Virus record (IMG/VR): IMGVR_UViG_2802429217_000005
Span: 1 to 38,049 of that record
Direction: 5' to 3' (one strand)
Source of the DNA: a virus
Taxonomy: Duplodnaviria; Heunggongvirae; Uroviricota; Caudoviricetes
DNA: 38,049 bases
Shown here: piece by piece, positions 3,011 to 26,975 of the stretch
Layout: every line of letters begins with the position of its first letter
Numbering within the stretch: position 1 is the first letter of the stretch
Notes under the pieces: model-generated
Database searches by the model: none
The model's input: the letters and a program-made list of their open reading frames with translations, nothing else
What the model was told of the DNA's origin: nothing
Program-made: the position numbers and the translations under genes

Positions 3011-3841
3011 ACCGGACTCCTCCTGCGATCCCTTCTGATACTGTCATCAGCATTACGTCATCCTCCGTCATGTCCGCCACATCCGGGGAAGTAGGGATAA
3101 CTTCATTCCCGTCCGGGCCAAAGCGGACACCTCCGGCAAGCCCTGCCGCTTTCTGCATCAGCACATCATCTTCAGGCTCTTCGTCAGCCTCACGCCGGTT
3201 CAGCAGACTGAAATCCAGCGGATGCATATCCGGATCGCTGAAAAACAGGCTGAGCACGGTGTACGTCAGCCCGGAAAAGTGCATATCCAGCAGAACATCA
3301 TGAAAATAATGGGTACTGTAAAAGCGGTGCCAGTCGGCATACTCCGTGGATGACATCCCGGCAAGCATGGCACGCCAGTCGGGTCGCCCCATCTCACGCG
3401 CCAGTTTCAGGGCAAAACTCAGCTCACCGTCGAACACTTTCCCGCAGAAACAGGCTCTGCGGGCCCGGCGTCCTCTGTCTGTTCAGGGGCATTATTCACC
3501 ACAAACTCATACATACCAGACAACCGGTACACCACGTTTTCAGCATGAGAAATTGCCTCTGTAGGCCAGGTGGTAAGCACTTCCTGCTCAATCTGTTTAA
3601 CGGCTTCATTCATGGACGGCATCTGCGTCTTCTGCGGATGGTTATGCCACAGGGACATCGCCACCAGAAACGCGCCGGTTCTGATGGCGTCTTCCACAGT
3701 AAACTTCCGGTTGCTGTCTGACTCCGCCTGTTCTGCCTGCCGTTTCATCAGGGCGAGATGCTCAATACGCTGCAGGGCTGACAGTTCAGAAAGCGTGACG
3801 GTCACGCCGTTATGTTCAAATGATTCGGTTTTCAGGAACAT
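3003..3841 (-). CDS. T: tail assembly chaperone G-T fusion made by programmed -1 ribosomal frameshift
   Basis: The -1 frame downstream of the GGGAAAG heptamer stays open to 3003 and encodes a lambda gpT-like sequence (FDGELSFALKLAREMGRPDWRAMLAGMSS...); the T frame has no start of its own apart from the track's GTG artefact. Confidence 0.75.
3419..3841 (-). CDS. G: tail assembly chaperone G
   Basis: 140-aa ORF MFLKTESFEHNGVTVTLSELSALQRIEHLALMKRQ... matching lambda gpG; ends ...AGKCSTVS with the slippery site in its last codons. Confidence 0.9.
   Translation of the reverse strand: MFLKTESFEHNGVTVTLSELSALQRIEHLALMKRQAEQAESDSNRKFTVEDAIRTGAFLVAMSLWHNHPQKTQMPSMNEAVKQIEQEVLTTWPTEAISHAENVVYRLSGMYEFVVNNAPEQTEDAGPAEPVSAGKCSTVS
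3437..3443 (-). promoter_or_regulatory. slippery heptamer G GGA AAG for the G to G-T -1 frameshift
   Basis: Plus-strand CTTTCCC at 3437-3443 is GGGAAAG on the minus strand, in phase X XXY YYZ with G codons 133-135 (Ala-Gly-Lys). Confidence 0.8.
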
Positions 3842-3856
3842 CGCTGACTCTCCGGA

Positions 3857-4597
3857 TTAACTGTCGGTGACAGTGATTTCTGCAACCGCAGCAAGTTCAC
3901 CATTACCGGATACAACCGGAATGTTGACCTTACCTGCAGCAACGCCTTTCACGGTGATGGTCATACCACTGACCGACACGGTGGCTTTTGTTTTATCCGC
4001 TGACACCGCACGGAAGCTCTTGTCAGTTGCGCCCTCCGGCTGGAATGCCACGGTCAGCGTGGTGCTCTGCCCTTTCACCACCGAGGAGCTGGCAGGCGTC
4101 ACAGTCATACCGGTTGCCGCCGTCACCGTACTGCGATCTTCTGCCATTGACGGACGGCCCACATTGGTGACCTTCACCGTACGGGTGATCACTTCCTTCG
4201 CCGTCACCGCCTTACCGATACTGCTGACCCAGCCACGGAACACATCGACCGTGCCGTTCGGGAAGCGGATTTTATAGGCACGGGTATCACCTTCATTAAA
4301 CCACGCCAGCAGCGCCTGCTGCCCCTGCTCTCCGGGCATCCACGCCAGCGTGAAGCTGGTATCTCCGGCGGATTTCTGCCCCTGCCCGGTCGCGGTCCAG
4401 TCCGCATCTTCATCATCGAGATAACTGTCGTCATAGGACTCAGCGGTCAGTTCGCCGGGCGTCAGGTCTTTAACTTTAGCCAGACGCGACCAGTCAACGT
4501 CTGAAAGCGGGTTCGCATAAGGGTCGCCGCTCCCGTTATAAACCCACAGGGTGGTCCCGGCACCTTTCACCGGTATTGCTGGATTTGGTACAGGCAT
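3857..4597 (-). CDS. V: major tail tube protein V
   Basis: Protein from the internal ATG at 4597 ([20 protein letters not shown]..., 246 aa) matches lambda gpV including the C-terminal Ig-like region; GAGGA Shine-Dalgarno 5 nt upstream. The track ORF is extended 10 codons upstream. Confidence 0.93.
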
Positions 4598-15265: not shown

Positions 15266-15658
15266 ACACTGTTAACCCCTTGGTTGTTTCAGCCGCCGGG
15301 GTTTTACTTGTTATTCACTGGTATGAGTACGACATCTGGCCATTTCATTCCGGGCTTTACTGTCGCCGCGACAGATGCAACGCATCGTATCGCCGTTCAG
15401 CGTAGTGATATAAGCCTCATCCGTTTTCTCTACCTGCAAACATGAAATATTCCCGTTCCGGCAATACTCAATTTTTGCTGCCAGATGGGTATTACGCGGG
15501 TAAAACTCCATACGATACATATCCCCCCAGGACATGCACTTCCTCAACCTGACGACCATCTTCAGTTACCGTAATCTTTTTCAGTGCGTACATACGTACC
15601 TCCGTTCTTTCGTTTTTTGAACAATAAAAAAGCCACCGAAGTGACCTTTTCGATGAGT

Positions 15659-16204
15659 TTATAAACCAACGCGCTCTTTCATCCAGCCATAGACAAACGA
15701 CTCGTTAGCCTCGCGTTTCTCTGCCAGCGCCAGATAACGCTCACCCTGCGTACAGTTCAGGGCTTTCACCAGTACCAGTTCGCCATCCCTGCCGCGATTT
15801 TTCAGATAAGAACGTAACGCATTAATGGTTCGCGGCCCGATCCCCCCGTCTGTAACTATGTCCGGATACAGCATTCCCTTCTGATTAAACACATTCAGCC
15901 AGCGCTGAAGCATTTTTGTGGCTACCGACGGCCCCATGTTTACCCCGGTATCACACAGTTCTGCAGCAATATCAGGAGACAGGTTTGCCACCTGGTCAAA
16001 ACGAGGTCCATACCAATAGTCCGCCTCAAGGATTTCCAGAGCCTGCCCGCGGCTCAAATCACGCATATCACCACGGTAACCATGCGCGCGCGCCACTTTT
16101 TCAGTAATTCCCCACTTCGTCGCTCCGCCTGTATCGTCAGGATGACTGACATAACCCCCCTCTTTTCCGAGGATTTCATCAAAAATTTCATCTCTCGATT
16201 TCAT
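15659..16204 (-). CDS. endolysin, glycoside hydrolase family 108-like with C-terminal peptidoglycan-binding domain
   Basis: N-terminal motif SRDEIFDEILGKEGGYVSHPDDTGGATKWGIT typical of GH108 muramidases (TtsA-like) as recalled; sits directly after two small membrane protein genes; start set to the ATG at 16204 (the track starts at a GTG). Confidence 0.7.
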   Translation of the reverse strand: MKSRDEIFDEILGKEGGYVSHPDDTGGATKWGITEKVARAHGYRGDMRDLSRGQALEILEADYWYGPRFDQVANLSPDIAAELCDTGVNMGPSVATKMLQRWLNVFNQKGMLYPDIVTDGGIGPRTINALRSYLKNRGRDGELVLVKALNCTQGERYLALAEKREANESFVYGWMKERVGL

Positions 16205-16205
16205 A

Positions 16206-16484
16206 TCAGCCACTCAGGAAAGCAAAAATTTTTGAAACATTACCGCGCGCACGCACTACCATGACACCAAATACCAGGTTCAGCATCACCACCAGCCAGT
16301 CTGCCGGCAACGGATGACCACAGAGATAACTTAACGGCGTTATCGCATACAACAGCATCAGACACCAGGCGCACCACGATATCAGCGGTTTGTGTCGTGA
16401 CTCTTTTCTGCGGTAGAAAAAAAGCGTCAGCACGATAACCGTACATAACGCCGCATTCAGTAATCCTGGAAGATTATTTGTCAT
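16206..16484 (-). CDS. small 3-TM membrane protein of the lysis cassette (holin or antiholin-like)
   Basis: About 92 aa from the ATG at 16484 with three hydrophobic segments; GGAGG upstream; lies between the putative holin and the endolysin. Confidence 0.5.
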   Translation of the reverse strand: MTNNLPGLLNAALCTVIVLTLFFYRRKESRHKPLISWCAWCLMLLYAITPLSYLCGHPLPADWLVVMLNLVFGVMVVRARGNVSKIFAFLSG

Positions 16485-16866
16485 TACCACCACCTCCTCC
16501 ACGCTGACGGGAGAACAGACCGGATACCAGTGATGTAATCTCCTGCTGGTGGATGAATGACAGGACTTTTACTGAGAGCACCGACACCAGGACCGCACAC
16601 AACGCATCAACGGAAGCACTGTTAAACCCAATACGTTCCGCCATGTAACCGGCCACACCACGGGCCCCAAGCACACCAACAATAAAGGACACCAGAAAAT
16701 GTGCAGCCACACGCCAGGCTGAAAGTGTCTGCGGCATTGTTGCCACAAATAACGCACCAGCGAACGCACCAAATACAATCCCGAAATCCGTCCCGGTAAA
16801 CAGCCCGAATACCGTCGCCCCGCCGAGCGCCACAGCAGTGCCGGAACCGGATAAGGGTTCAGACAT
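16474..16866 (-). CDS. putative holin
   Basis: About 130 aa from the ATG at 16866 (AGGAG 8 nt upstream); Gly/Ala-rich hydrophobic segments and a charged C-terminal tail; first gene of the lysis cassette. Confidence 0.55.
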   Translation of the reverse strand: MSEPLSGSGTAVALGGATVFGLFTGTDFGIVFGAFAGALFVATMPQTLSAWRVAAHFLVSFIVGVLGARGVAGYMAERIGFNSASVDALCAVLVSVLSVKVLSFIHQQEITSLVSGLFSRQRGGGGGNDK

Positions 16867-17065
16867 ATTTATTCTCCTGTAAATAAAAAGGACCATCAGC
16901 GGCCCCGTAACTGACATTTTATTAACGTTTGAAGATATGGATATTTATCAGGGTTTACCGTTTTCTGAACCCTGGATATGTTAAGCATTCAGCCCGCCAG
17001 TGGTGGGACGCTGGCTCATCATAGAGAAAGAGGGATGGCTGATTACCTCTGATCAGGGAAATTAC

Positions 17066-17335
17066 ATGCAGTTTTTACATAAAAGAATGCATTTAAATGC
17101 AGGAGATACGGTAGTGGTTGACTGCTCTCATCAGTGCAATATTTTGCTGATGACAGATACAAACTTTAATAACTACCGCAACGCAAGAAGCTTTCATCAT
17201 CACGGTGGTGGCGGTTTTTTTCAGAGATTACCGGCCCACCTTCATGTCCCGCATTCAGGTTACTGGAATATTACAATTGATTTAGGAGGCGGAAGTGCAG
17301 CTATTCGGCACTCCATTTCCGTCATCCCAGCATAG
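17066..17335 (+). CDS. hypothetical protein
   Basis: ORF on the strand opposite the late genes; start placed at the ATG at 17066 (MQFLHKRMHLNAGDTVVVDCSHQC...); contains HHHGGGGFF; no family recognised with confidence. Confidence 0.35.
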   Translation: MQFLHKRMHLNAGDTVVVDCSHQCNILLMTDTNFNNYRNARSFHHHGGGGFFQRLPAHLHVPHSGYWNITIDLGGGSAAIRHSISVIPA

Positions 17336-17700
17336 CAACTCGCCTTTAGCCTGAGTAAATGCGTCCTCAAGGACGGCAACGAGTCGCAGTTGCGTGCCGT
17401 CCTTTACACAGCGTGTGCAGCAATACCTTCAGAACTTTCATTATGCCGAGCTCATACAATTTCACCATTTTGTTCAACTACAACGCTCATAATTTTCTTA
17501 CACTTTTTTAATAAACCACACCAATAACAACCATCACCGATACCTTTTGTATGCTGTTATTTTGCATTACGGTGTAACGGCAAGAGCCCCCTCCCCGCCC
17601 ACCAACACACCATCAGCCAGTACCGACATCAACCGCCCAGTGAAATCCACTGCCACTACCAGAAACAACAGGATGGCAGCCAGCACAAGGCCCGCACTTT

Positions 17701-18126
17701 TCACAGATACTGCTCCAGTGGTAACTGAAGCGCCTGTGCAATTTTCTTGAGCTGCGCTTCTTCATCCGGACCAATGCCATCCTGATCAGCGATATCCAGA
17801 CAGAGGCAAAGCACGTCAACCGCCTCAGTTGTCCCCGCCACATCAGCCAGCTCACGTAATGCATGCGCATTCGCACTACGCGGTGACGCTTCATAACGGG
17901 CGCGGATATTGGCGCTCATCTGGGCAATCTCACCAGAGAACGGTGCAAAAGCAGGAAGCGCAGCAATGGTTTTCTCCAGTACTGCGATTTCTTTTGCGTC
18001 GCAGGTGCCGTCGGCATATGCAATGGAATATGCGCCCCAGACGGTCGCCTCCACCGCATCACGGTTCTCCATCTTCTTCACTTCAGTGATGGCCTTGCGG
18101 GTTTTCTTTTTGAAAATACCTAACAT
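17701..18126 (-). CDS. TerB-like (tellurite-resistance TerB family fold) protein
   Basis: 141-aa ORF; pattern AYADGTCDAKEIAVLEKTIAALP ... LCLCLDIADQDGIGPDEEAQLKKIAQAL resembles the TerB/DjlA N-terminal family as recalled. Confidence 0.45.
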   Translation of the reverse strand: MLGIFKKKTRKAITEVKKMENRDAVEATVWGAYSIAYADGTCDAKEIAVLEKTIAALPAFAPFSGEIAQMSANIRARYEASPRSANAHALRELADVAGTTEAVDVLCLCLDIADQDGIGPDEEAQLKKIAQALQLPLEQYL

Positions 18127-18307
18127 CGTGACTTTTCCTTTGCGTAGACGAGCCTGCGCCAGATGGTTACCAGCCCACAGTGAAAGTCACACTGACAATC
18201 CCGTAAGCACCTCCTGAAAGGCTCTGTGTTTTTGATGTGCGCCAGGTGTGGCTCAGATACAAAAAAAGCTCGCCGTAGCGAGCTAACAGAAAATATGAAG
18301 CATGTTT

Positions 18308-18586
18308 TTATCCACGAAGCATGACAATGAACTCATCCATGCCTACACGGCTGGCTATCTCGTTGTATTCCTCAACAAGAGCCAGCAATTCTGAATTAGC
18401 AGCCATGAACTCATCAAAAACCTTATGGATGGCATCACTGTTTAATAAAACAATGTTCTTTCCTGAAAGGCGATCAGGGGTAGAAAATATAACTGTTAAA
18501 CGACTAAAGGCCCTGGCTCGTTCAGCATTAACATCCTCAATACGCTGCAACAAGCTGGAGCACCTGGAAATATCATCAATATTCAC
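18308..18586 (-). CDS. hypothetical protein
   Basis: 92-aa ORF starting at a GTG with AGGAG 5 nt upstream; no family recognised. Confidence 0.4.
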   Translation of the reverse strand: MNIDDISRCSSLLQRIEDVNAERARAFSRLTVIFSTPDRLSGKNIVLLNSDAIHKVFDEFMAANSELLALVEEYNEIASRVGMDEFIVMLRG

Positions 18587-19105
18587 TCTACTCCTGCCAT
18601 CTGGATGATAATCATTTCACGGAGAGAAGCACTCAGAAGTACCACTGAAGTATAACTGGTGACCAGCTGCTTACACATCTGTTGCCATCCTGCTGATGAT
18701 AAGTCGATATTAACCCTTCTGTCTATAAACGAAACAAAGGATAAGTTCAGGTTTTAAACACACTGCCAGGATAAAGTATTGTATACAGTATAGAAGAGCG
18801 TTATTGAATGACATAAAAAACCAGACCTAATCCCTTATCCGGAATATATATCAAATAAACGGGGAAAATGTATTAAGATGGCGTTCCTATTCTCTCCATC
18901 CCTGATGTCCACGTAACTCGTTATAGAATCAGAACGCCATCTGAATACACACAAAAAAGCTGGCTTCACACCCTCCTGCATGTGTGAACGCAGTGCCCGA
19001 CCACGTGCTTTCGCAACCAGCGAAAATCAGTTTTAAATACCGAAAAACGATAAGAATATATCAGAACTTCCAAGCATCCTGCTTGGCTTAGATATTAATC
19101 GAAGA

Positions 19106-20191
19106 TTAGCTCCTGTTCTTATCTAATTGTGCATTTCGCAATTTATCGTTCAGCACCAATATTTCACCAACTGTTTGTTCAAAACGCCCGGACTCAAGTT
19201 CAACCCCAATCGTGCGACGCCCCAATCCCATTGCTGCTTTTATTGTTGCCCCCGATCCCATAAAAAAATCCGCAACCACATCCCCCGGACGACTGCTGGC
19301 AGAAATTATCTGACGCAACATATCCGCCGGTTTTTCGCAGGGATGCTTACCCGGATAATACTGTACGGGCTTATGCGTCCAGACATCCGTATAAGGAACG
19401 GCGGCCGATACAGAAAAATAACGCCGCAGAGATTTGTATTCCTCAAGCAGACTGGCATATTGCCGGTTCAGTTCACTGTATGTGCTGACCAGCAGTTGGT
19501 GTGGCGTTGCCAGCTCCCCACGCTGGTGTTTTTCTTCTGCAACACGCGCGAACAGCGCCTGCAGTTTTCTGTAATCAGCTTCGTTCGGTAACTGCCACTG
19601 ACTGGTACCAAACCAGTGCGACACCATGTTTTTCTTTCCGGTGGCTTCCGCTATCTGTTTGGACGTTATTCCCAGTGATTCACGCGCATCACGAAAGTAA
19701 AAAATCAGCGGGGCCATGACGTGTTGTTTAAGCTCGCGCTCCTTTGCCGCATAGCCGGCATTTTTTGGCTGATATGGCCCCTGATAATGTTCGGCAAACA
19801 GAATGCGCTCTGTTGCCGGGAAATACGCCCGCAGGCTTTCTTTGTTGCACCCGTTCCAGCGTCCGGACGGCTTCGCCCAGATAATGTGGTTCAGCACATT
19901 AAAGCGCTCACGCATCATGATTTCGATATCAGATGCCAGGCGATGACCACAAAACAGGTAAAGACTTCCGGCAGGCTTCAGTACCCGCCAGAACTGAGCC
20001 AGACACTGGTCCAGCCATTTCAGGTAATCATCGTCTCCCTTCCACTGGTTATCCCAGCCCTCGGGCTTCACTTTAAAATATGGCGGGTCTGTGACTATAA
20101 GATCGACAGAGTTTTCCGATAAGGTCTGGATAAATTCCAGGCAATCGGTGTTGATTAACTCACAACTGGATATTTTTACAGTATCAACCAT
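19106..20191 (-). CDS. orphan DNA methyltransferase (N6-adenine/N4-cytosine class, DPPY motif)
   Basis: 361-aa ORF with motif IV DPPY near the N-terminus (LIVTDPPYF) and the AdoMet-binding motif near the C-terminus (DFFMGSGAT); no adjacent restriction endonuclease gene recognised. Confidence 0.85.
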   Translation of the reverse strand: MVDTVKISSCELINTDCLEFIQTLSENSVDLIVTDPPYFKVKPEGWDNQWKGDDDYLKWLDQCLAQFWRVLKPAGSLYLFCGHRLASDIEIMMRERFNVLNHIIWAKPSGRWNGCNKESLRAYFPATERILFAEHYQGPYQPKNAGYAAKERELKQHVMAPLIFYFRDARESLGITSKQIAEATGKKNMVSHWFGTSQWQLPNEADYRKLQALFARVAEEKHQRGELATPHQLLVSTYSELNRQYASLLEEYKSLRRYFSVSAAVPYTDVWTHKPVQYYPGKHPCEKPADMLRQIISASSRPGDVVADFFMGSGATIKAAMGLGRRTIGVELESGRFEQTVGEILVLNDKLRNAQLDKNRS

Positions 20192-20331
20192 AGATCAATA
20201 AGCACTTCTCTGATAGGCTCATACCGCTTTTGCGCAAAGCGGATGGGCCTGAGGTTTGCTTGTGACCCCGATTCATGAGCAGATGGCTGGCAGGTGCCGC
20301 TAACACCCACCAGCCGCCCATTACCACAAAG

Positions 20332-20355
20332 TAAAAAGCCTTCACTGCGGAAGGC
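20332..20355 (-). terminator. candidate intrinsic terminator between the winged-helix gene and the methyltransferase gene
   Basis: On the minus strand: GCCUUC-CGCAGU-GAAGGC followed by UUUUU, overlapping the stop of the 65-aa ORF. Confidence 0.5.
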
Positions 20356-20539
20356 GTCTGTAACAACCGAACTGATAATCTGCCAGACCCGCCATAACAA
20401 GCTGGGTCAGTATTAACTGACAGCGTTCGCGTGAAAGGTAAGTATTCTGCGCAATTTCCCCAACTGTTGCCGGTTCAGTGACGCTTAATTCATTAAACAC
20501 CACTCTGGCTGTTTCTGTCATATCCTGCTGTTTTAGCAT
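20342..20539 (-). CDS. small putative winged-helix DNA-binding protein
   Basis: 65-aa ORF; ATVGEIAQNTYLSRERCQLILTQLVMAGL resembles a MarR-like winged-helix recognition region; family not recognised. Confidence 0.4.
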   Translation of the reverse strand: MLKQQDMTETARVVFNELSVTEPATVGEIAQNTYLSRERCQLILTQLVMAGLADYQFGCYRRLPQ

Positions 20540-20712
20540 GTCTTTTTCTCTTTATTGGTTAACGTGACATACCAATAACTCTTGTCGAAGAAGCCAGCAA
20601 GCTGAAAGACCGGTATTAATAACCACCTGCACATTTTATGTACCGAACCATTTTTCTGGCATAAAAAACCTCTCAATGGCGGGCGGTAAAAATCTTTGTT
20701 ACTCAAGAAATT

Positions 20713-21426
20713 TTAACGCACTCTGACTGTATTAATTTCAAAATCATTAATATTTCCGCTATTAAATATAACGAATTTCTTACTCCCACTCCTGTATGAT
20801 TTCGATAACACCAGACGATCATCATAACGCGCAATAATGTAATACCATACATTCTCATAGTGGATCACCTGATATTCCCTCTTAAACTGTGGTTTGTACC
20901 AACCGGCAATAAGAGAGAATGCCCAGAAATAAATCATAAACCCAGCCATCATGAACTCAATTCGGTGATGGCGAATAAAAGACATTTCCGAAAAACATTT
21001 GACTGAAACAAGTCTTCTTCCAGACCTGACAAAAAGCGTGATTGTAAAGGCAGCAAGAATGCAGAAAATCAGTACATCTGGCTCAACATGCTGATGAATT
21101 ACCGAAAACTCCAGAACAGGTGGAATAAAAAGCAGCAATATCGCGAGAAAAAGCCGGATAAAACTCAAATTTTGTATATTGCGCTTTTGTTTTATGCCCA
21201 AAAAGAAAACAATACCAACTCCCCATCCAATAAGGAATATAACGATAACTGTCACAGCATAAAACAAACTTCGTGCAACATCATCGACACCAGCCCCGAC
21301 AACCCACCATGGAAAGCCATAGTAAAATGAAGTACCCCATCCATAGAAATAAGCGCTTCCCCATCCTAGACAGCCCATATAAGCAACAAAAAGTGAAGAG
21401 TTTCTGAGCAGAGCACTGTCATTCAT
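20713..21426 (-). CDS. multi-pass membrane protein of unknown function (late-region moron)
   Basis: 237-aa ORF with about five hydrophobic Trp/Tyr-rich segments; visibly AT-rich DNA; first gene downstream of the candidate tR'. Confidence 0.55.
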   Translation of the reverse strand: MNDSALLRNSSLFVAYMGCLGWGSAYFYGWGTSFYYGFPWWVVGAGVDDVARSLFYAVTVIVIFLIGWGVGIVFFLGIKQKRNIQNLSFIRLFLAILLLFIPPVLEFSVIHQHVEPDVLIFCILAAFTITLFVRSGRRLVSVKCFSEMSFIRHHRIEFMMAGFMIYFWAFSLIAGWYKPQFKREYQVIHYENVWYYIIARYDDRLVLSKSYRSGSKKFVIFNSGNINDFEINTVRVR

Positions 21427-21565
21427 AGTAACACCATTAACAACTCAAAAATATCAACACATATTACATAACAAATTGGATTCCATGCAGTCAAGGGGCG
21501 TCATTGATGGAGAAAGTATTGGCACAATCGTCATCACGTTTAATGTCTATGCCATTTTTTGGGGG

Positions 21566-21593
21566 GATAAAAAACCCGCTCGGTCGCGGGTTT
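21566..21593 (-). terminator. candidate tR'-type intrinsic terminator downstream of Q
   Basis: Minus-strand AAAACCCGC-GACCGA-GCGGGUUUUUUA: GC stem flanked by an A-tract and a 6-U tract. Confidence 0.6.
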
Positions 21594-21639
21594 TACTAGC
21601 TTTGCCATCACGTATAAAAACAGCAAAATATCAGATTTA

Positions 21640-21675
21640 CACGAAATATATGCGTTTTAATCTACTTTTGCAATA
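21640..21675 (-). promoter_or_regulatory. candidate late promoter pR'
   Basis: On the minus strand: -35 TTGCAA (21667-21672), 18-bp spacer, -10 TATATT (21643-21648); begins 9 nt after the Q stop and about 50-75 nt upstream of the terminator. Confidence 0.35.
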
Positions 21676-21680
21676 CTTTG

Positions 21681-22346
21681 CTATGAAAATGCCGCCTTTT
21701 GTTTTGAACGTGTTCTCTCCACTAACAATAAAGCTTCACTATCCAGCCGATGAAAAATGTGTTTCATTGCAACCCAGTGACCAGTAAATGTCTTGGACCA
21801 GTTTTTGGTTGTTACTCCCACCAGTAACGCCAGTTCCTGGTATTCATAACCTTCCCCACCAAAAAGCTCAGCTTTTACCGCCTGCGCCGCCAACCAGATC
21901 AACGTCTTCAGGCGCACCAGAGTTTTTCCTGCAATTTTTCTGGTACCGGATTGAGCATTAAATTCAGTCCACGCCCACTGCGTTATCGCGATCTTATACT
22001 CCCAGCAAATGCTACCGCTGTAACACCACAGCACCCACGCCTTCTGATGCTCTTCAAGAGACAGAACGGCGCGTCGCCATGATGATGTCGAAAACTCAAC
22101 CGGACTGACCAGGGCAATTGATGAACCTTTCGCCAGCGATTGCTTTCCCGGGATCGGTGGATTATCCAGCGTTACTATTTTTCCAGTGACCTTATCGCGG
22201 TACCGGATTTTTTTACGTCTGTAACGCCCTGTATTGAACATGGCATTCTCCTGCCAGGCTTCAAGCTGACCTTTTGTTGCTCCACTCAAATCAGCGGTGG
22301 CGATCGTGAGCTGCTCACGCACAAACTGTAAATACTGGTTATTCAT
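21681..22346 (-). CDS. putative late antiterminator Q (non-lambda Q family)
   Basis: 221 aa from the ATG at 22346, which overlaps the rusA stop; position directly after RusA and before a promoter-terminator pair matches Q; family identity is from recall only. Confidence 0.5.
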   Translation of the reverse strand: MNNQYLQFVREQLTIATADLSGATKGQLEAWQENAMFNTGRYRRKKIRYRDKVTGKIVTLDNPPIPGKQSLAKGSSIALVSPVEFSTSSWRRAVLSLEEHQKAWVLWCYSGSICWEYKIAITQWAWTEFNAQSGTRKIAGKTLVRLKTLIWLAAQAVKAELFGGEGYEYQELALLVGVTTKNWSKTFTGHWVAMKHIFHRLDSEALLLVERTRSKQKAAFS

Positions 22347-22702
22347 GCGCACTCCAGTTCTGTGATTTTTATCCCCAGCCGACCACCGGGAATAACCTGA
22401 CCGCGCATAATATTAACTTCATCAAACTGCTCATCGTCGATAAGCAGTCCCGCATGTGTCAGTGCATCCAGTGGTGCTTTCAGAATATTGTCCAGGTCAC
22501 GACGGCGCTTATCCGGCGGCTCTGCAATAATTTTTATTGCCAGCCTTCCGGACAGATTTAATTTCAGTCGCTGCTGGCGAACAATAAGCGCCACATCCCG
22601 GCGATAACGCTCCCCTGCTTTTGATACAAAATATGTGCTGCCACGACGACGCCAGTAGGTATTCACCGTCGGAGGGTAAGGCAAAACAAATTCTATCCCC
22701 AT
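22343..22702 (-). CDS. rusA: Holliday junction resolvase RusA
   Basis: 119-aa ORF with the RusA signature (LPYPPTVNTYWRRRG ... PDKRRRDLDNILKAPLDALTHAGLLIDDEQ); AGAGG Shine-Dalgarno. Confidence 0.9.
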   Translation of the reverse strand: MGIEFVLPYPPTVNTYWRRRGSTYFVSKAGERYRRDVALIVRQQRLKLNLSGRLAIKIIAEPPDKRRRDLDNILKAPLDALTHAGLLIDDEQFDEVNIMRGQVIPGGRLGIKITELECA

Positions 22703-25168: not shown

Positions 25169-25959
25169 TGGGTCCATTGATTATAACTGTGATTCTCGTG
25201 TGTGGTTTTTGGTACACCGAGAATCACTATCAATCGAGAATTCATCACGCAAGAACAAATGGGTGGTCATCCTATTTCTACGTTGCAATGCATGGGTGTC
25301 GTTTTGTTGCTCAAGGATTTCTTTTGACGCTCGGGATCTACATGCTTTTCTGGCTACTGAACTCTATCCCACACATAATCAATATTTTCCGAGACAAACC
25401 TATAGAATGGCATTTTTTTAATTGGTTACTTGAAACCAAAGTGATGGAATTACCACTTTTTGCTGTCATCACCATCATTTTCGCTTGTTGTATTGCTTAC
25501 TCTGAGGGGGTGGATGCGCGAAAAGAAATGGAGAATGAAGAAGCGCGCCAAAAGGCTTACAGGGAGATGGCATCAAAAGATTCACTAGAAAACCTATTGA
25601 TCCAAGCCATTGACACAGAGATGCTGATTTTTGTAACACTAAAATCCAGAAAAGTATATATCGGGTATGTGTCAGCACCACGTGTTGAATTCCACAACAG
25701 TGCGCATCTTGAGATCATACCATTCATTAGTGGTTACAGAGATAAGGACTCACTACGCTACATAGAACAACACCGATACTATGATCTCTATCTATCCAAA
25801 GAAATCACATTTGAGTCCGAACCATTAAATTTACAACATTTTCGACACGTCATTCCTATCGAACAAATTGAAGCGATCTCGCTCTTTGATGAAAGCACGT
25901 ACAGCGATTTTGAAAGATTTTCCGAGCCAATGCCTGACACAAAGCAATTACCAGTATAG
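25168..25959 (+). CDS. membrane protein with three N-terminal TM helices and a ~150-aa C-terminal domain, unknown function
   Basis: 263-aa ORF, translationally coupled to the upstream gene; AAGGAAG Shine-Dalgarno; visibly AT-rich; no family recognised. Confidence 0.6.
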   Translation: MGPLIITVILVCGFWYTENHYQSRIHHARTNGWSSYFYVAMHGCRFVAQGFLLTLGIYMLFWLLNSIPHIINIFRDKPIEWHFFNWLLETKVMELPLFAVITIIFACCIAYSEGVDARKEMENEEARQKAYREMASKDSLENLLIQAIDTEMLIFVTLKSRKVYIGYVSAPRVEFHNSAHLEIIPFISGYRDKDSLRYIEQHRYYDLYLSKEITFESEPLNLQHFRHVIPIEQIEAISLFDESTYSDFERFSEPMPDTKQLPV

Positions 25960-25961
25960 TA

Positions 25962-25976
25962 TTACCCTCCCCTCTA
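25962..25976. repeat. right copy of the 15-bp direct repeat TTACCCTCCCCTCTA
   Basis: Exact match to 24842-24856, 3 nt after the stop of the 263-aa gene. Confidence 0.8.
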
Positions 25977-26282
25977 ACGATATACTAAAAAGCCGCTACA
26001 ACTGGACTGCCCCCATAAAGTTGGACAGTTCATGTTAAGCGGCTTTCAGGGCTTGACCCAACAGAAGTTAGATTGTAAGTATCCCGCTTAAACGGACCAT
26101 CTGGTCTTTGTTCCACGGTGACGTGCTCATACCTCCTGAAATGTGGGAGATTTGAGTATGGTTGTCCCTTATGAGCGAAATTTGCACGAAGCGGATAAGT
26201 TACCGGAGCTGAAGGTCCGCTGTGAGCGAAGAGCGGACCTGAGATTGTGGTATGCTAATTTATGGGGATCAGGTCAATTGTA

Positions 26283-26975
26283 TTAGTTATCTTTTTGCTT
26301 TTCTTTATCCCATTTCTTTGCAGTGGTCTGATACCACTCTTCACGCACTCGTTGTTCCTCGGCTCTGTCACTTGAATTATAGTTGTCCGTTTTAATTTTT
26401 TTGCTTCCATGGGAAATCGGCCTCCAGTCTTCTCTAATCTTTTTCACCTGCTCGGCTATCTGTGTCATTGGACTCCTTGCACCTAAGTAGCTAACCCCCT
26501 CGAAAGAAGCCATATCATAAGAATACTCATTCCGCTCTCTTTCAGTTGAGCCCGGCTGTTTAGACCAACTAATACTAACAGAATAAACTTGATCTTTAAT
26601 CTGTTCATACTTACAAAGACTGCTGTTGAGCGAATGGCCGTTTTTTAATACGCTAACCTTGCTAAATGGTATACCTATATTTTTTCTATGTTCAGCATTT
26701 ACCAGTGGGGGATTAAATCCGATTTCAATATCATAGGCTGGGGCATTTCCGGTATTAGCAATATTGATATCAAAATAAAAAGCAGCCCAAGAATTTGGTT
26801 CAAGAGTCACAACGACGTGAGGTTGAACTGATGCGTCAACCATCCTTTTTGTCTCGTCTGCTAATAGCCTTGTTACTCTCCACAAGAAAAATGTAGCAAC
26901 TGCTGTTAGCAATGCTGCCAAAGCGGAGATAAGTGTGCTTACAGTGTTTATATGCTCTGCGATAAATTCGATCAT
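26283..26975 (-). CDS. N-terminally TM-anchored protein of unknown function
   Basis: 230-aa ORF with one hydrophobic segment (residues ~10-32) and a Lys/Glu-rich C-terminus; AAGGA Shine-Dalgarno; convergent with the repeat-bounded operon. Confidence 0.55.
   Translation of the reverse strand: MIEFIAEHINTVSTLISALAALLTAVATFFLWRVTRLLADETKRMVDASVQPHVVVTLEPNSWAAFYFDINIANTGNAPAYDIEIGFNPPLVNAEHRKNIGIPFSKVSVLKNGHSLNSSLCKYEQIKDQVYSVSISWSKQPGSTERERNEYSYDMASFEGVSYLGARSPMTQIAEQVKKIREDWRPISHGSKKIKTDNYNSSDRAEEQRVREEWYQTTAKKWDKEKQKDN

Follow-up and report, generated by a model that had tools for sequence, protein, structure and literature searches.

A probable mosaic of three cargo cassettes in the Q-to-holin region of an Escherichia coli lambdoid prophage

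Between the DNA methyltransferase gene and the lysis genes of an Escherichia coli lambdoid prophage lies an interval (positions 17000-18586 of the window, by which we mean the whole 38,049-nucleotide stretch that was analysed, IMG/VR record IMGVR_UViG_2802429217_000005) that a preliminary description, made from the sequence, had treated as one cluster of unassigned genes. We read it, with a probability of about 0.6 for that reading including the working proposed for each part, as a mosaic made up of three cargo cassettes ("morons"), independent of one another and dispensable, in the late operon between the antiterminator gene Q and the holins: a gene for a protein of 92 amino acids (aa); the gene pair tciA-tciB; and, on the opposite strand, a gene of the DUF1883 family. 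From what their sequences suggest, the most likely role of the cassettes is that of dispensable membrane- or host-directed cargo and not of lysis machinery. The single cluster thus gives way to three unrelated cassettes with separate histories, and "unassigned" was too strong a word, since 3 of the 4 genes belong to named families (TerB/TciA, DUF3927/TciB, and DUF1883) and carry RefSeq annotation.

E. coli strain QML220601 has in its chromosome a prophage 100% identical to the window, and the same 2.25-kb arrangement is found in 3 other complete genomes. The RefSeq annotation of the QML220601 record gives a lambdoid prophage with its late genes on the minus strand of the window; read in that direction, the order is antiterminator Q, a 237-aa membrane protein, a 65-aa protein, the methyltransferase, the 92-aa gene, the TerB gene (tciA), the DUF3927 gene (tciB), the DUF1883 gene (on the plus strand), two holins, and a GH108 endolysin (Table 1). 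The interval sits in the Q-to-holin part of the late operon, a stretch that is the usual site of cargo genes in lambdoid phages, for example, the stx genes. The three cassettes differ in distribution: among 5426 complete E. coli genomes, the 92-aa gene locus is present in 51 and the DUF1883 locus in 40, and similar tciAB DNA (at least 80% of the cassette covered) is present in at least 163. All four exact proteins are public, on 428 to at least 1000 contigs, and across the genes the ratio of nonsynonymous to synonymous substitution (dN/dS) against distant copies is 0.06-0.23.

The tciA-tciB cassette can be compared directly with relatives that have lost it. Pairwise alignment with NZ_CP076272 reveals a gap of about 614 bp, comprising tciA and most of tciB, and since phages vB_Apl-pPE4 and Fostie have intact cassettes homologous to the sequence on either side of the gap, the siblings have lost this segment; the window did not gain it. 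Among the genomes listed, at least 20 have the deletion form and 4 have the full arrangement, and in the tciAB-deleted sibling prophages the lysis cassette is annotated as intact. In P1, tciA, tciB, and tciC were nonessential in a screen by CRISPR interference (PMC10695390), and tciABC is absent from about half of the P1-like plasmids of subgroup 1 (PMC9603915). That these genes are accessory, and not conserved late or lysis functions (the assignment that would have refuted the preliminary description), is supported by the deletion in siblings, the dispensability in P1, and the rarity of the loci in E. coli. Moreover, the position of tciAB is not tied to lysis: six lambdoid phages (that of this window, vB_Apl-pPE4, Fostie, JLK-2012, Evi, and Klebsiella phage 1 LV-2017) have the pair between Q and holin, the N4-like phage FSL SP-076 has it in its early region, and P1 has it beside tRNA genes.

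The TerB-like protein proposed earlier is real. TciA scores 30.9 bits against Pfam TerB (PF05099; cut-off, 24.4), matches phrog_632 (E=2.5e-65), and is 87.2% identical in amino acid sequence to P1 TciA, with a dN/dS of 0.08; a profile built from seven TciA sequences matches the TerB structure 2jxu (E=7.5e-8) over residues 15-135. The domain, with its near full-length profile match, is thus the same as that of ter-operon TerB (e.g., of Klebsiella, PDB 2jxu). Unlike the ter tellurite-resistance operons, the annotation of the 38-kb window holds none of terZ, terA, terC, terD, and terE, and a lone terB is not expected to confer tellurite resistance, as has also been argued for phage PMBT3 (PMC8421299). 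Although the features described earlier are present, the gene list was incomplete, missing both tciB and a pseudogene taken up below. TciB matches Pfam DUF3927 (E=2.5e-9) and phrog_1470, "TciB-like" (E=2.3e-16), and its GTG start overlaps the tciA stop codon (GTGA). The pair resembles P1 tciA-tciB-tciC (annotation of Lobocka et al. 2004, GenBank AF234172) not only in the identity of TciA but also in having a DUF3927 TciB directly downstream with overlapping stop and start, and in being dispensable and variably present. It differs in its context, which is the Q-to-holin late region here and the tRNA/ban region in P1, in the replaced C-terminus of TciB, and in the lack of tciC: when the DNA is aligned with that of P1, the similarity weakens over the 3′ part of tciB, and opposite tciC the window shows a gap, with no open reading frame there. 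The C-terminus of TciB is aberrant, running ...LVGGEGALAVTP against an aligned consensus of LVAGVxALxWPxxK, so that GGEGALAVTP stands in place of AGVxALxWPxxK, and the divergence and early stop begin at the left edge of the sibling deletion. TciB here lacks the end of its second hydrophobic segment (hydrophobicity of that segment, Kyte-Doolittle 1.4 versus 2.6) and is not a full-length two-segment protein. Since the exact 45-aa form is present on 428 public contigs, this is not a sequencing error. The tciA leader (18127-18266, minus strand; about 110 nt) is common to vB_Apl-pPE4 and Fostie and not to P1 (three sequences), and it contains a small hairpin, CAGUG UGACUUU CACUG.

The opposite-strand gene at 17066-17335 is likewise real. 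Its product matches Pfam DUF1883 (PF08980, E=1.6e-26) over residues 1-88 of 89, in effect its full length, and it matches structure 2b1y (Atu1913; E=2.9e-8), which has no assigned function. The homologues form 110 clusters, all stand-alone, the close ones being 87-90 aa long and spread across Proteobacteria, with F3, H5, N25, GG49-50, P56, P62, W67, and DLGG72-75 invariant; against the Klebsiella phage copy, dN/dS is 0.06. The GTG at 17000, taken earlier as the left border of the interval, is not a gene start, because all homologues begin MQFLH or MNFLH, which places the true start at ATG 17066; a 111-aa product from the GTG is ruled out, since what is conserved in the upstream stretch is RNA structure, not protein sequence. 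The gene is inserted singly and runs against the late genes around it in each of the phage and prophage contexts examined, whether in the tail region (Klebsiella phage, Serratia, Erwinia, Providencia, Yersinia, and Pectobacterium), in the lysis-to-terminase gap (Pseudomonas, Hafnia, and Citrobacter), or in the Q-to-holin gap (Morganella, Arsenophonus, and E. coli). Like Atu1913, it encodes a single-domain protein of about 90 aa; unlike Atu1913, the enterobacterial copies carry an HHHGGGG insertion and are prophage cargo with a convergent partner and a structured leader. MrpB of C. difficile is also a DUF1883 protein (bioRxiv 10.1101/2025.08.20.671228).

The best evidence that DUF1883 has regulated expression of its own is, at the level of sequence comparison, covariation in a leader stem-loop that ends 5 nt before a Shine-Dalgarno-like AGGGA and 16 nt from the ATG. 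Across eight distinct Enterobacterales cassettes, 90.6% of stem cells are paired, versus 71.7±3.6 in shuffled controls, with 0 of 500 shuffles reaching that value, and compensatory changes are found in 6 of the 8 pairs. The covariation score, from eight sequences only and with an automatic alignment that shifts the register for some, is 0.656 versus 0.278 (0/500), and slid controls give 0.12-0.31. Rfam holds no match for the leader hairpin, nor, at E≤1, for any part of the region 16000-22500. Upstream of the leader, a TATGTT conserved in four other genera would serve as a promoter element for DUF1883, and it is followed by a conserved box and then by a hairpin (16993-17007) whose sequence differs between genera. 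Several Enterobacterales cassettes also have, at about -35, a palindrome, CTGAT-N6-ATCAG (16939-16954, plus strand), a possible operator of which the window keeps the left half only in degenerate form. An upstream open reading frame from the ATG in the leader loop is ruled out, since that codon is ACG in Hafnia and the reading frame is not the same from one cassette to the next.

DUF1883 is accompanied by a convergent gene, found in 20 further loci from 12 genera, that runs in the direction of the flanking late genes in 11 of those 12. This partner encodes a protein of 57-69 aa of family phrog_21096, for which the protein database has at least 317 clusters; the gene overlaps DUF1883 at its 3′ end by 14-111 nt (the Klebsiella phage copy excepted) and is intact in 11 other genera. 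The window has only its remnant, the pseudogene missed by the preliminary description. In a tblastn search with the Hafnia partner, residues 29-63 align to 17407-17303 (66% identity, E=6e-12) and residues 1-27 to 17490-17410 in another frame. The homologous frame carries two lesions: a nonsense codon at a conserved Trp (TGG to TGA, 17452-17454) and a 1-nt deletion (of G, at 17419/17420) relative to a sibling prophage that has the TGA only. In the Klebsiella phage ST13-OXA48phi12.5, the partner (3756-3935 of the extracted locus) stops 51 nt short of DUF1883 and has a different nonsense codon, CAG to TAG after KDGTQ, so the partner has been inactivated at least twice with DUF1883 intact. DUF1883 probably acts alone and is unlikely to be a toxin dependent on the partner, because it is under strong purifying selection while the partner is dead. 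The name that NCBI attaches to the partner, "Rrf2 family transcriptional regulator," is unsupported, with no Pfam, NCBIfam, or PDB-profile match among 11 members, and 57-69 aa is probably too short for a regulator of that family. Only five papers naming DUF1883 were retrieved by the literature search, and those examined describe neither the convergent partner nor the leader hairpin nor the pseudogene.

The hairpin that the preliminary description had placed at 17371-17402, after the plus-strand gene, exists to within 2 nt; however, it sits inside the coding sequence of the convergent partner, its 3′ arm antisense to the invariant K-D-G-T codons and its 5′ arm antisense to V-A-V-L. Within the window it is unremarkable on its own. 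By length it is the last of the 25 inverted repeats listed (31 were found), its folding free energy of -19.9 kcal/mol (z=-2.0) is equalled by 5 of 200 shuffles, and in an 85-nt context z is -1.1. Across 10 Enterobacterales DUF1883 cassettes, 95% of the stem cells are paired, a conservation score that 20 of 500 shuffles reach. The cassette in the window thus has both the leader stem-loop and the 3′ hairpin characteristic of DUF1883/phrog_21096 cassettes. That the hairpin is simply the Rho-independent terminator of the DUF1883 gene is a tentative possibility that falls somewhat short of even odds. Such a role would suit a stable, GC-rich stem 34 nt past the stop codon that is kept in 10 cassettes, and it would suit the strand preference as well: pair 14-41 is G.U in 8 of the 10 and pairs only in plus-strand (DUF1883) RNA, and the plus-strand fold is stabler than the minus-strand fold in 8 of the 10. 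Against it, the stem is followed by UUU here and by no more than 3 U in any cassette, short of the tract of at least about 5 expected of an intrinsic terminator, and for that reason the terminator scan makes no call; moreover, conserved codons of the overlapping partner gene dictate the sequence of both arms, and neither the Pseudomonas nor the Burkholderia cassettes have the hairpin. With moderate to low confidence, we take the hairpin to be a 3′ stem-loop of the DUF1883 mRNA that acts as a weak terminator or stabilizer.

For the 92-aa gene, the GTG start and strong Shine-Dalgarno sequence noted earlier are confirmed, with AGGAG 4 nt upstream and identical coordinates in RefSeq. A homologue in phage mEp460_ev081 is 65% identical with the same GTG start (dN/dS 0.23), and an exhaustive HMMER search of 1.84 billion representative proteins returned only 18 relatives, with six invariant positions; by its sequence, the protein belongs to a real, very small family. 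AlphaFold2, run with an alignment, gives a helix, a beta-hairpin, and a second helix at a mean confidence (pLDDT) of 90, a predicted antiparallel coiled-coil hairpin with a beta-hairpin tip. Pfam has no match, and NCBIfam has only weak matches far under the cut-offs (including DgcS, E=0.014). The UniRef name "GGDEF domain-containing protein" is unsupported by Pfam, NCBIfam, or PDB-profile searches. Downstream of the gene, an intrinsic terminator called by the terminator scan folds with a free energy of -13 (z=-3.0), equalled by 2 of 200 shuffles, and the gene may have its own promoter, to judge from a consensus match upstream. Of the features expected of a moron, the terminator of this gene is therefore clear and its presence among relatives is variable; the promoters are consensus-level predictions.

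Known cargo of lambdoid phages, whether classed as morons or by the Q-to-holin site, includes bor, lom, and the stx genes of Shiga toxin (Stx) phages. The three cassettes resemble these in being self-contained late-operon inserts that are variably present, some with their own promoter and terminator or in inverted orientation. They are unlike them in having no virulence or known host-benefit function attached.

As to how the parts might work, we propose that Q-modified polymerase would transcribe the minus-strand genes, passing three terminator-like sites (20338-20355, 18267-18284, and 16889-16906). Because the 92-aa terminator lies upstream and no promoter-like site precedes tciA (the consensus scan finds none at 18127-18300, between that terminator and the gene), expression of tciA-tciB would come mainly from late transcription antiterminated by Q, along with that of the lysis genes. 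Coupled in translation through the GTGA overlap, the two genes would give a soluble TerB protein and a tiny hydrophobic partner, which might form a membrane-associated pair made late in infection, with a protective or exclusion function and not one in lysis. It has been suggested that TerB domains alternate between the cytoplasm and the membrane (bioRxiv 10.1101/2025.09.30.679545). DUF1883 would be made in the lysogen from its own promoter under leader-mediated control, and, where the partner is intact, late transcription would yield it together with antisense RNA, shutting DUF1883 down. A bolder version, to which we give only a small chance, would make DUF1883, its GGCUGAU-loop leader, and the phrog_21096 partner an undescribed two-gene regulatory module, widely mobile among prophages, in which a lysogen-expressed effector or sensor, kin to the domain fused to TIR immune proteins, is shut off by late-operon transcription through partner and antisense RNA, while TciA-TciB is a membrane-surveillance module deployed with the lysis genes.

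Other readings of the interval must be set beside the mosaic of cargo cassettes. Given their place, the genes could belong to the lysis programme, as regulators of its timing or antiholin-like factors, with TciB acting on the holin and TciA as its cytoplasmic partner. TciB is small and hydrophobic, tciA-tciB is probably cotranscribed with the holin in the window, and in the six lambdoid phages the pair either directly precedes the holin or lies at most about 2.4 kb away. We nevertheless consider this very improbable. In P1 and in the early region of FSL SP-076 the pair is far from the lysis genes; it is nonessential in P1 (PMC10695390); and many siblings have it cleanly deleted with holins and endolysin annotated as intact. 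A location between Q and holin is, as with stx, the classic place for lambdoid cargo and does not in itself argue for lysis. That the interval is decaying, nonfunctional prophage DNA whose open reading frames persist by recent common descent only is also rather unlikely. The replaced TciB C-terminus, the two inactivating lesions of the DUF1883 partner, the 614-bp deletion in siblings, and, elsewhere in the prophage, an IS3 element in hokD and a frameshifted gene all fit it. They are opposed by purifying selection against distant copies (dN/dS of 0.06 for DUF1883, 0.08 for TciA, and 0.23 for the 92-aa gene), by the covariation of the leader hairpin, and by the recurrence of the exact proteins on 428 to at least 1000 contigs.

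It is possible, though on the unlikely side, that at least one cassette serves in antiphage defence, superinfection exclusion, or counterdefence to the benefit of the lysogen, with TciAB surveying the membrane and DUF1883 as a sensor-like protein or decoy, kin to the TIR-fused domain. TerB-domain proteins, which have been suggested to monitor the membrane, are part of the validated systems Dionysus, Bunzi, and Shango (bioRxiv 10.1101/2025.09.30.679545); ter operons have been tied to phage inhibition (PMC9603915); and DUF1883 occurs in the TIR domain architectures that predominate in bacteria and archaea (PMC9153377). DUF1883, moreover, is always a strand-inverted insert in prophage late regions or adjoins immunity or integrase genes. 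Even so, TciA is a bare TerB domain without an effector, strictly lytic phages also carry the TerB domain, so that a role benefiting the phage fits better than host defence, and a PADLOC-DB 2.0 search at E≤0.1 gave zero defence-system matches for DUF1883, TciB, TciA, and the 92-aa protein. This last result weighs not only on the defence proposal but on the mosaic of functional cassettes as well, and it does not stand alone. The consensus scan finds no more promoter-like sites in the region than in shuffled sequence, which makes the promoter assignments weak, and the TATGTT element scores below the threshold of that scan. The altered TciB, the dead partner gene, the IS3 insertion, and the frameshifted gene fit plain decay too. 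In the hairpin after DUF1883 there is a single compensatory change (C:G to A:U) and 6 of the 10 pairs are invariant, and its conservation could come largely from the KDGT and VAVL codons of the partner. Finally, the name "tci" in P1 rests on homology only.

The result is, in the main, ordinary prophage cargo with better annotation, since the exact proteins are public and RefSeq-annotated and the name tciAB goes back to the P1 genome paper; to this comes one modest lead that is new, the two-gene DUF1883 cassette with its leader RNA. The gain in annotation is that the TerB gene is a P1-type tciA, that tciB had been overlooked, that the plus-strand gene is half of a two-gene cassette, and that the hairpin lies in coding sequence. 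Both tciAB, at the frequency given above, and the DUF1883 partner family, with its clusters, are common prophage cargo. For the bench, the covarying leader hairpin and the strict convergent pairing are concrete starting points, and if TerB or DUF1883 cargo does affect phage exclusion or host immunity, these cassettes would be simple one- or two-gene systems in which to study it.

Table 1. Coordinates of features in and around the Q-to-holin interval (window positions).
Feature	Position	Strand	Remarks
-10-like element TATGTT	16977-16982	+	Conserved in Erwinia, Providencia, Morganella, and Citrobacter cassettes
Conserved box ATTCAGCCC	16987-16995	+	Followed by a hairpin
DUF1883 leader stem-loop	17029-17050	+	AGAGGGAU GGCUG AUUACCUCU; invariant GGCUGAU loop region
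DUF1883 gene	17066-17335	+	89 aa; antisense to late operon
Partner pseudogene, unannotated	17282-17490	-	ATG 17490 to TAA 17282-17284; overlaps DUF1883 by 54 nt
Hairpin	17369-17404	+	Perfect 10-bp arms 17369-17378 and 17395-17404; 16-nt loop; 34 nt past DUF1883 stop
tciB	17567-17704	-	DUF3927 small hydrophobic protein, 45 aa; RefSeq coding sequence
Segment deleted in siblings	17602-18214		About 614 bp, tciA and most of tciB; pairwise alignment with NZ_CP076272
tciA	17701-18126	-	Stand-alone TerB-domain protein, 141 aa; orthologue of P1 TciA
Intrinsic terminator of 92-aa gene	18267-18284	-	AGCUCGC UACG GCGAGCU then U7; terminator scan
92-aa gene	18308-18586	-	GTG start; phrog_2873; same coordinates in RefSeq
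Promoter-like site for 92-aa gene	18696-18725	-	TAGACA, 18-nt spacer, TATCAT; 10/12 matches; consensus scan only, weak
N6/N4 DNA methyltransferase	19106-20191		RefSeq
65-aa protein	20342-20539	-	phrog_331, weak winged-helix similarity; no Pfam family
237-aa multi-pass membrane protein	20713-21426	-	phrog_1521; no Pfam family

The same neighbourhood has been linked to small RNAs: in a 2026 preprint, PasA, PasC, and PasD adjoin holin, TerB, and DUF3927 genes, and the Pas small RNAs of the lambdoid prophages of enteropathogenic E. coli adjoin the holin and, in strain E2348/69, a DUF3927 gene. BLAST of the E2348/69 PasA, PasA long form, PasC, and PasD2 against the window gave only scattered matches (best E, 0.04-0.5), none significant. 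Prophage PP2 of that strain (NC_011601, 740958-741328) has a lone DUF3927 (tciB-like) gene without tciA and, within 40 nt downstream, PasD2 (positions 1459-1617 and 1658-1829 of the extracted locus, respectively); PasD may have originated in the 3′ region of a tciB cassette.

A spacer of 519 bp (18587-19105) separates the methyltransferase from the 92-aa gene; it has no convincing open reading frame, no tRNA, no Rfam match, and no similarity to phage genomes in a distant-mode search; a tRNA search of the whole window likewise found none. In Stx phages, tRNA genes occupy the equivalent position. At the other end of the interval, directly upstream of the holin ribosome-binding site on the late strand, is a terminator-like hairpin (16889-16906, minus strand; GGGGCC GCUGAU GGUCCU then UUUUAUUU) whose fold is weak (free energy -8.9, z=-0.9); if real, it would make expression of the holin dependent on transcription antiterminated by Q. 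ATG 16917 is upstream of this hairpin; the Pfam holin model begins at ATG 16866. Elsewhere in the prophage, two signs of decay are seen: the IS3 element interrupts hokD at about 25537-26953, and the hypothetical gene adjoining bor (15311-15593) is frameshifted according to RefSeq.

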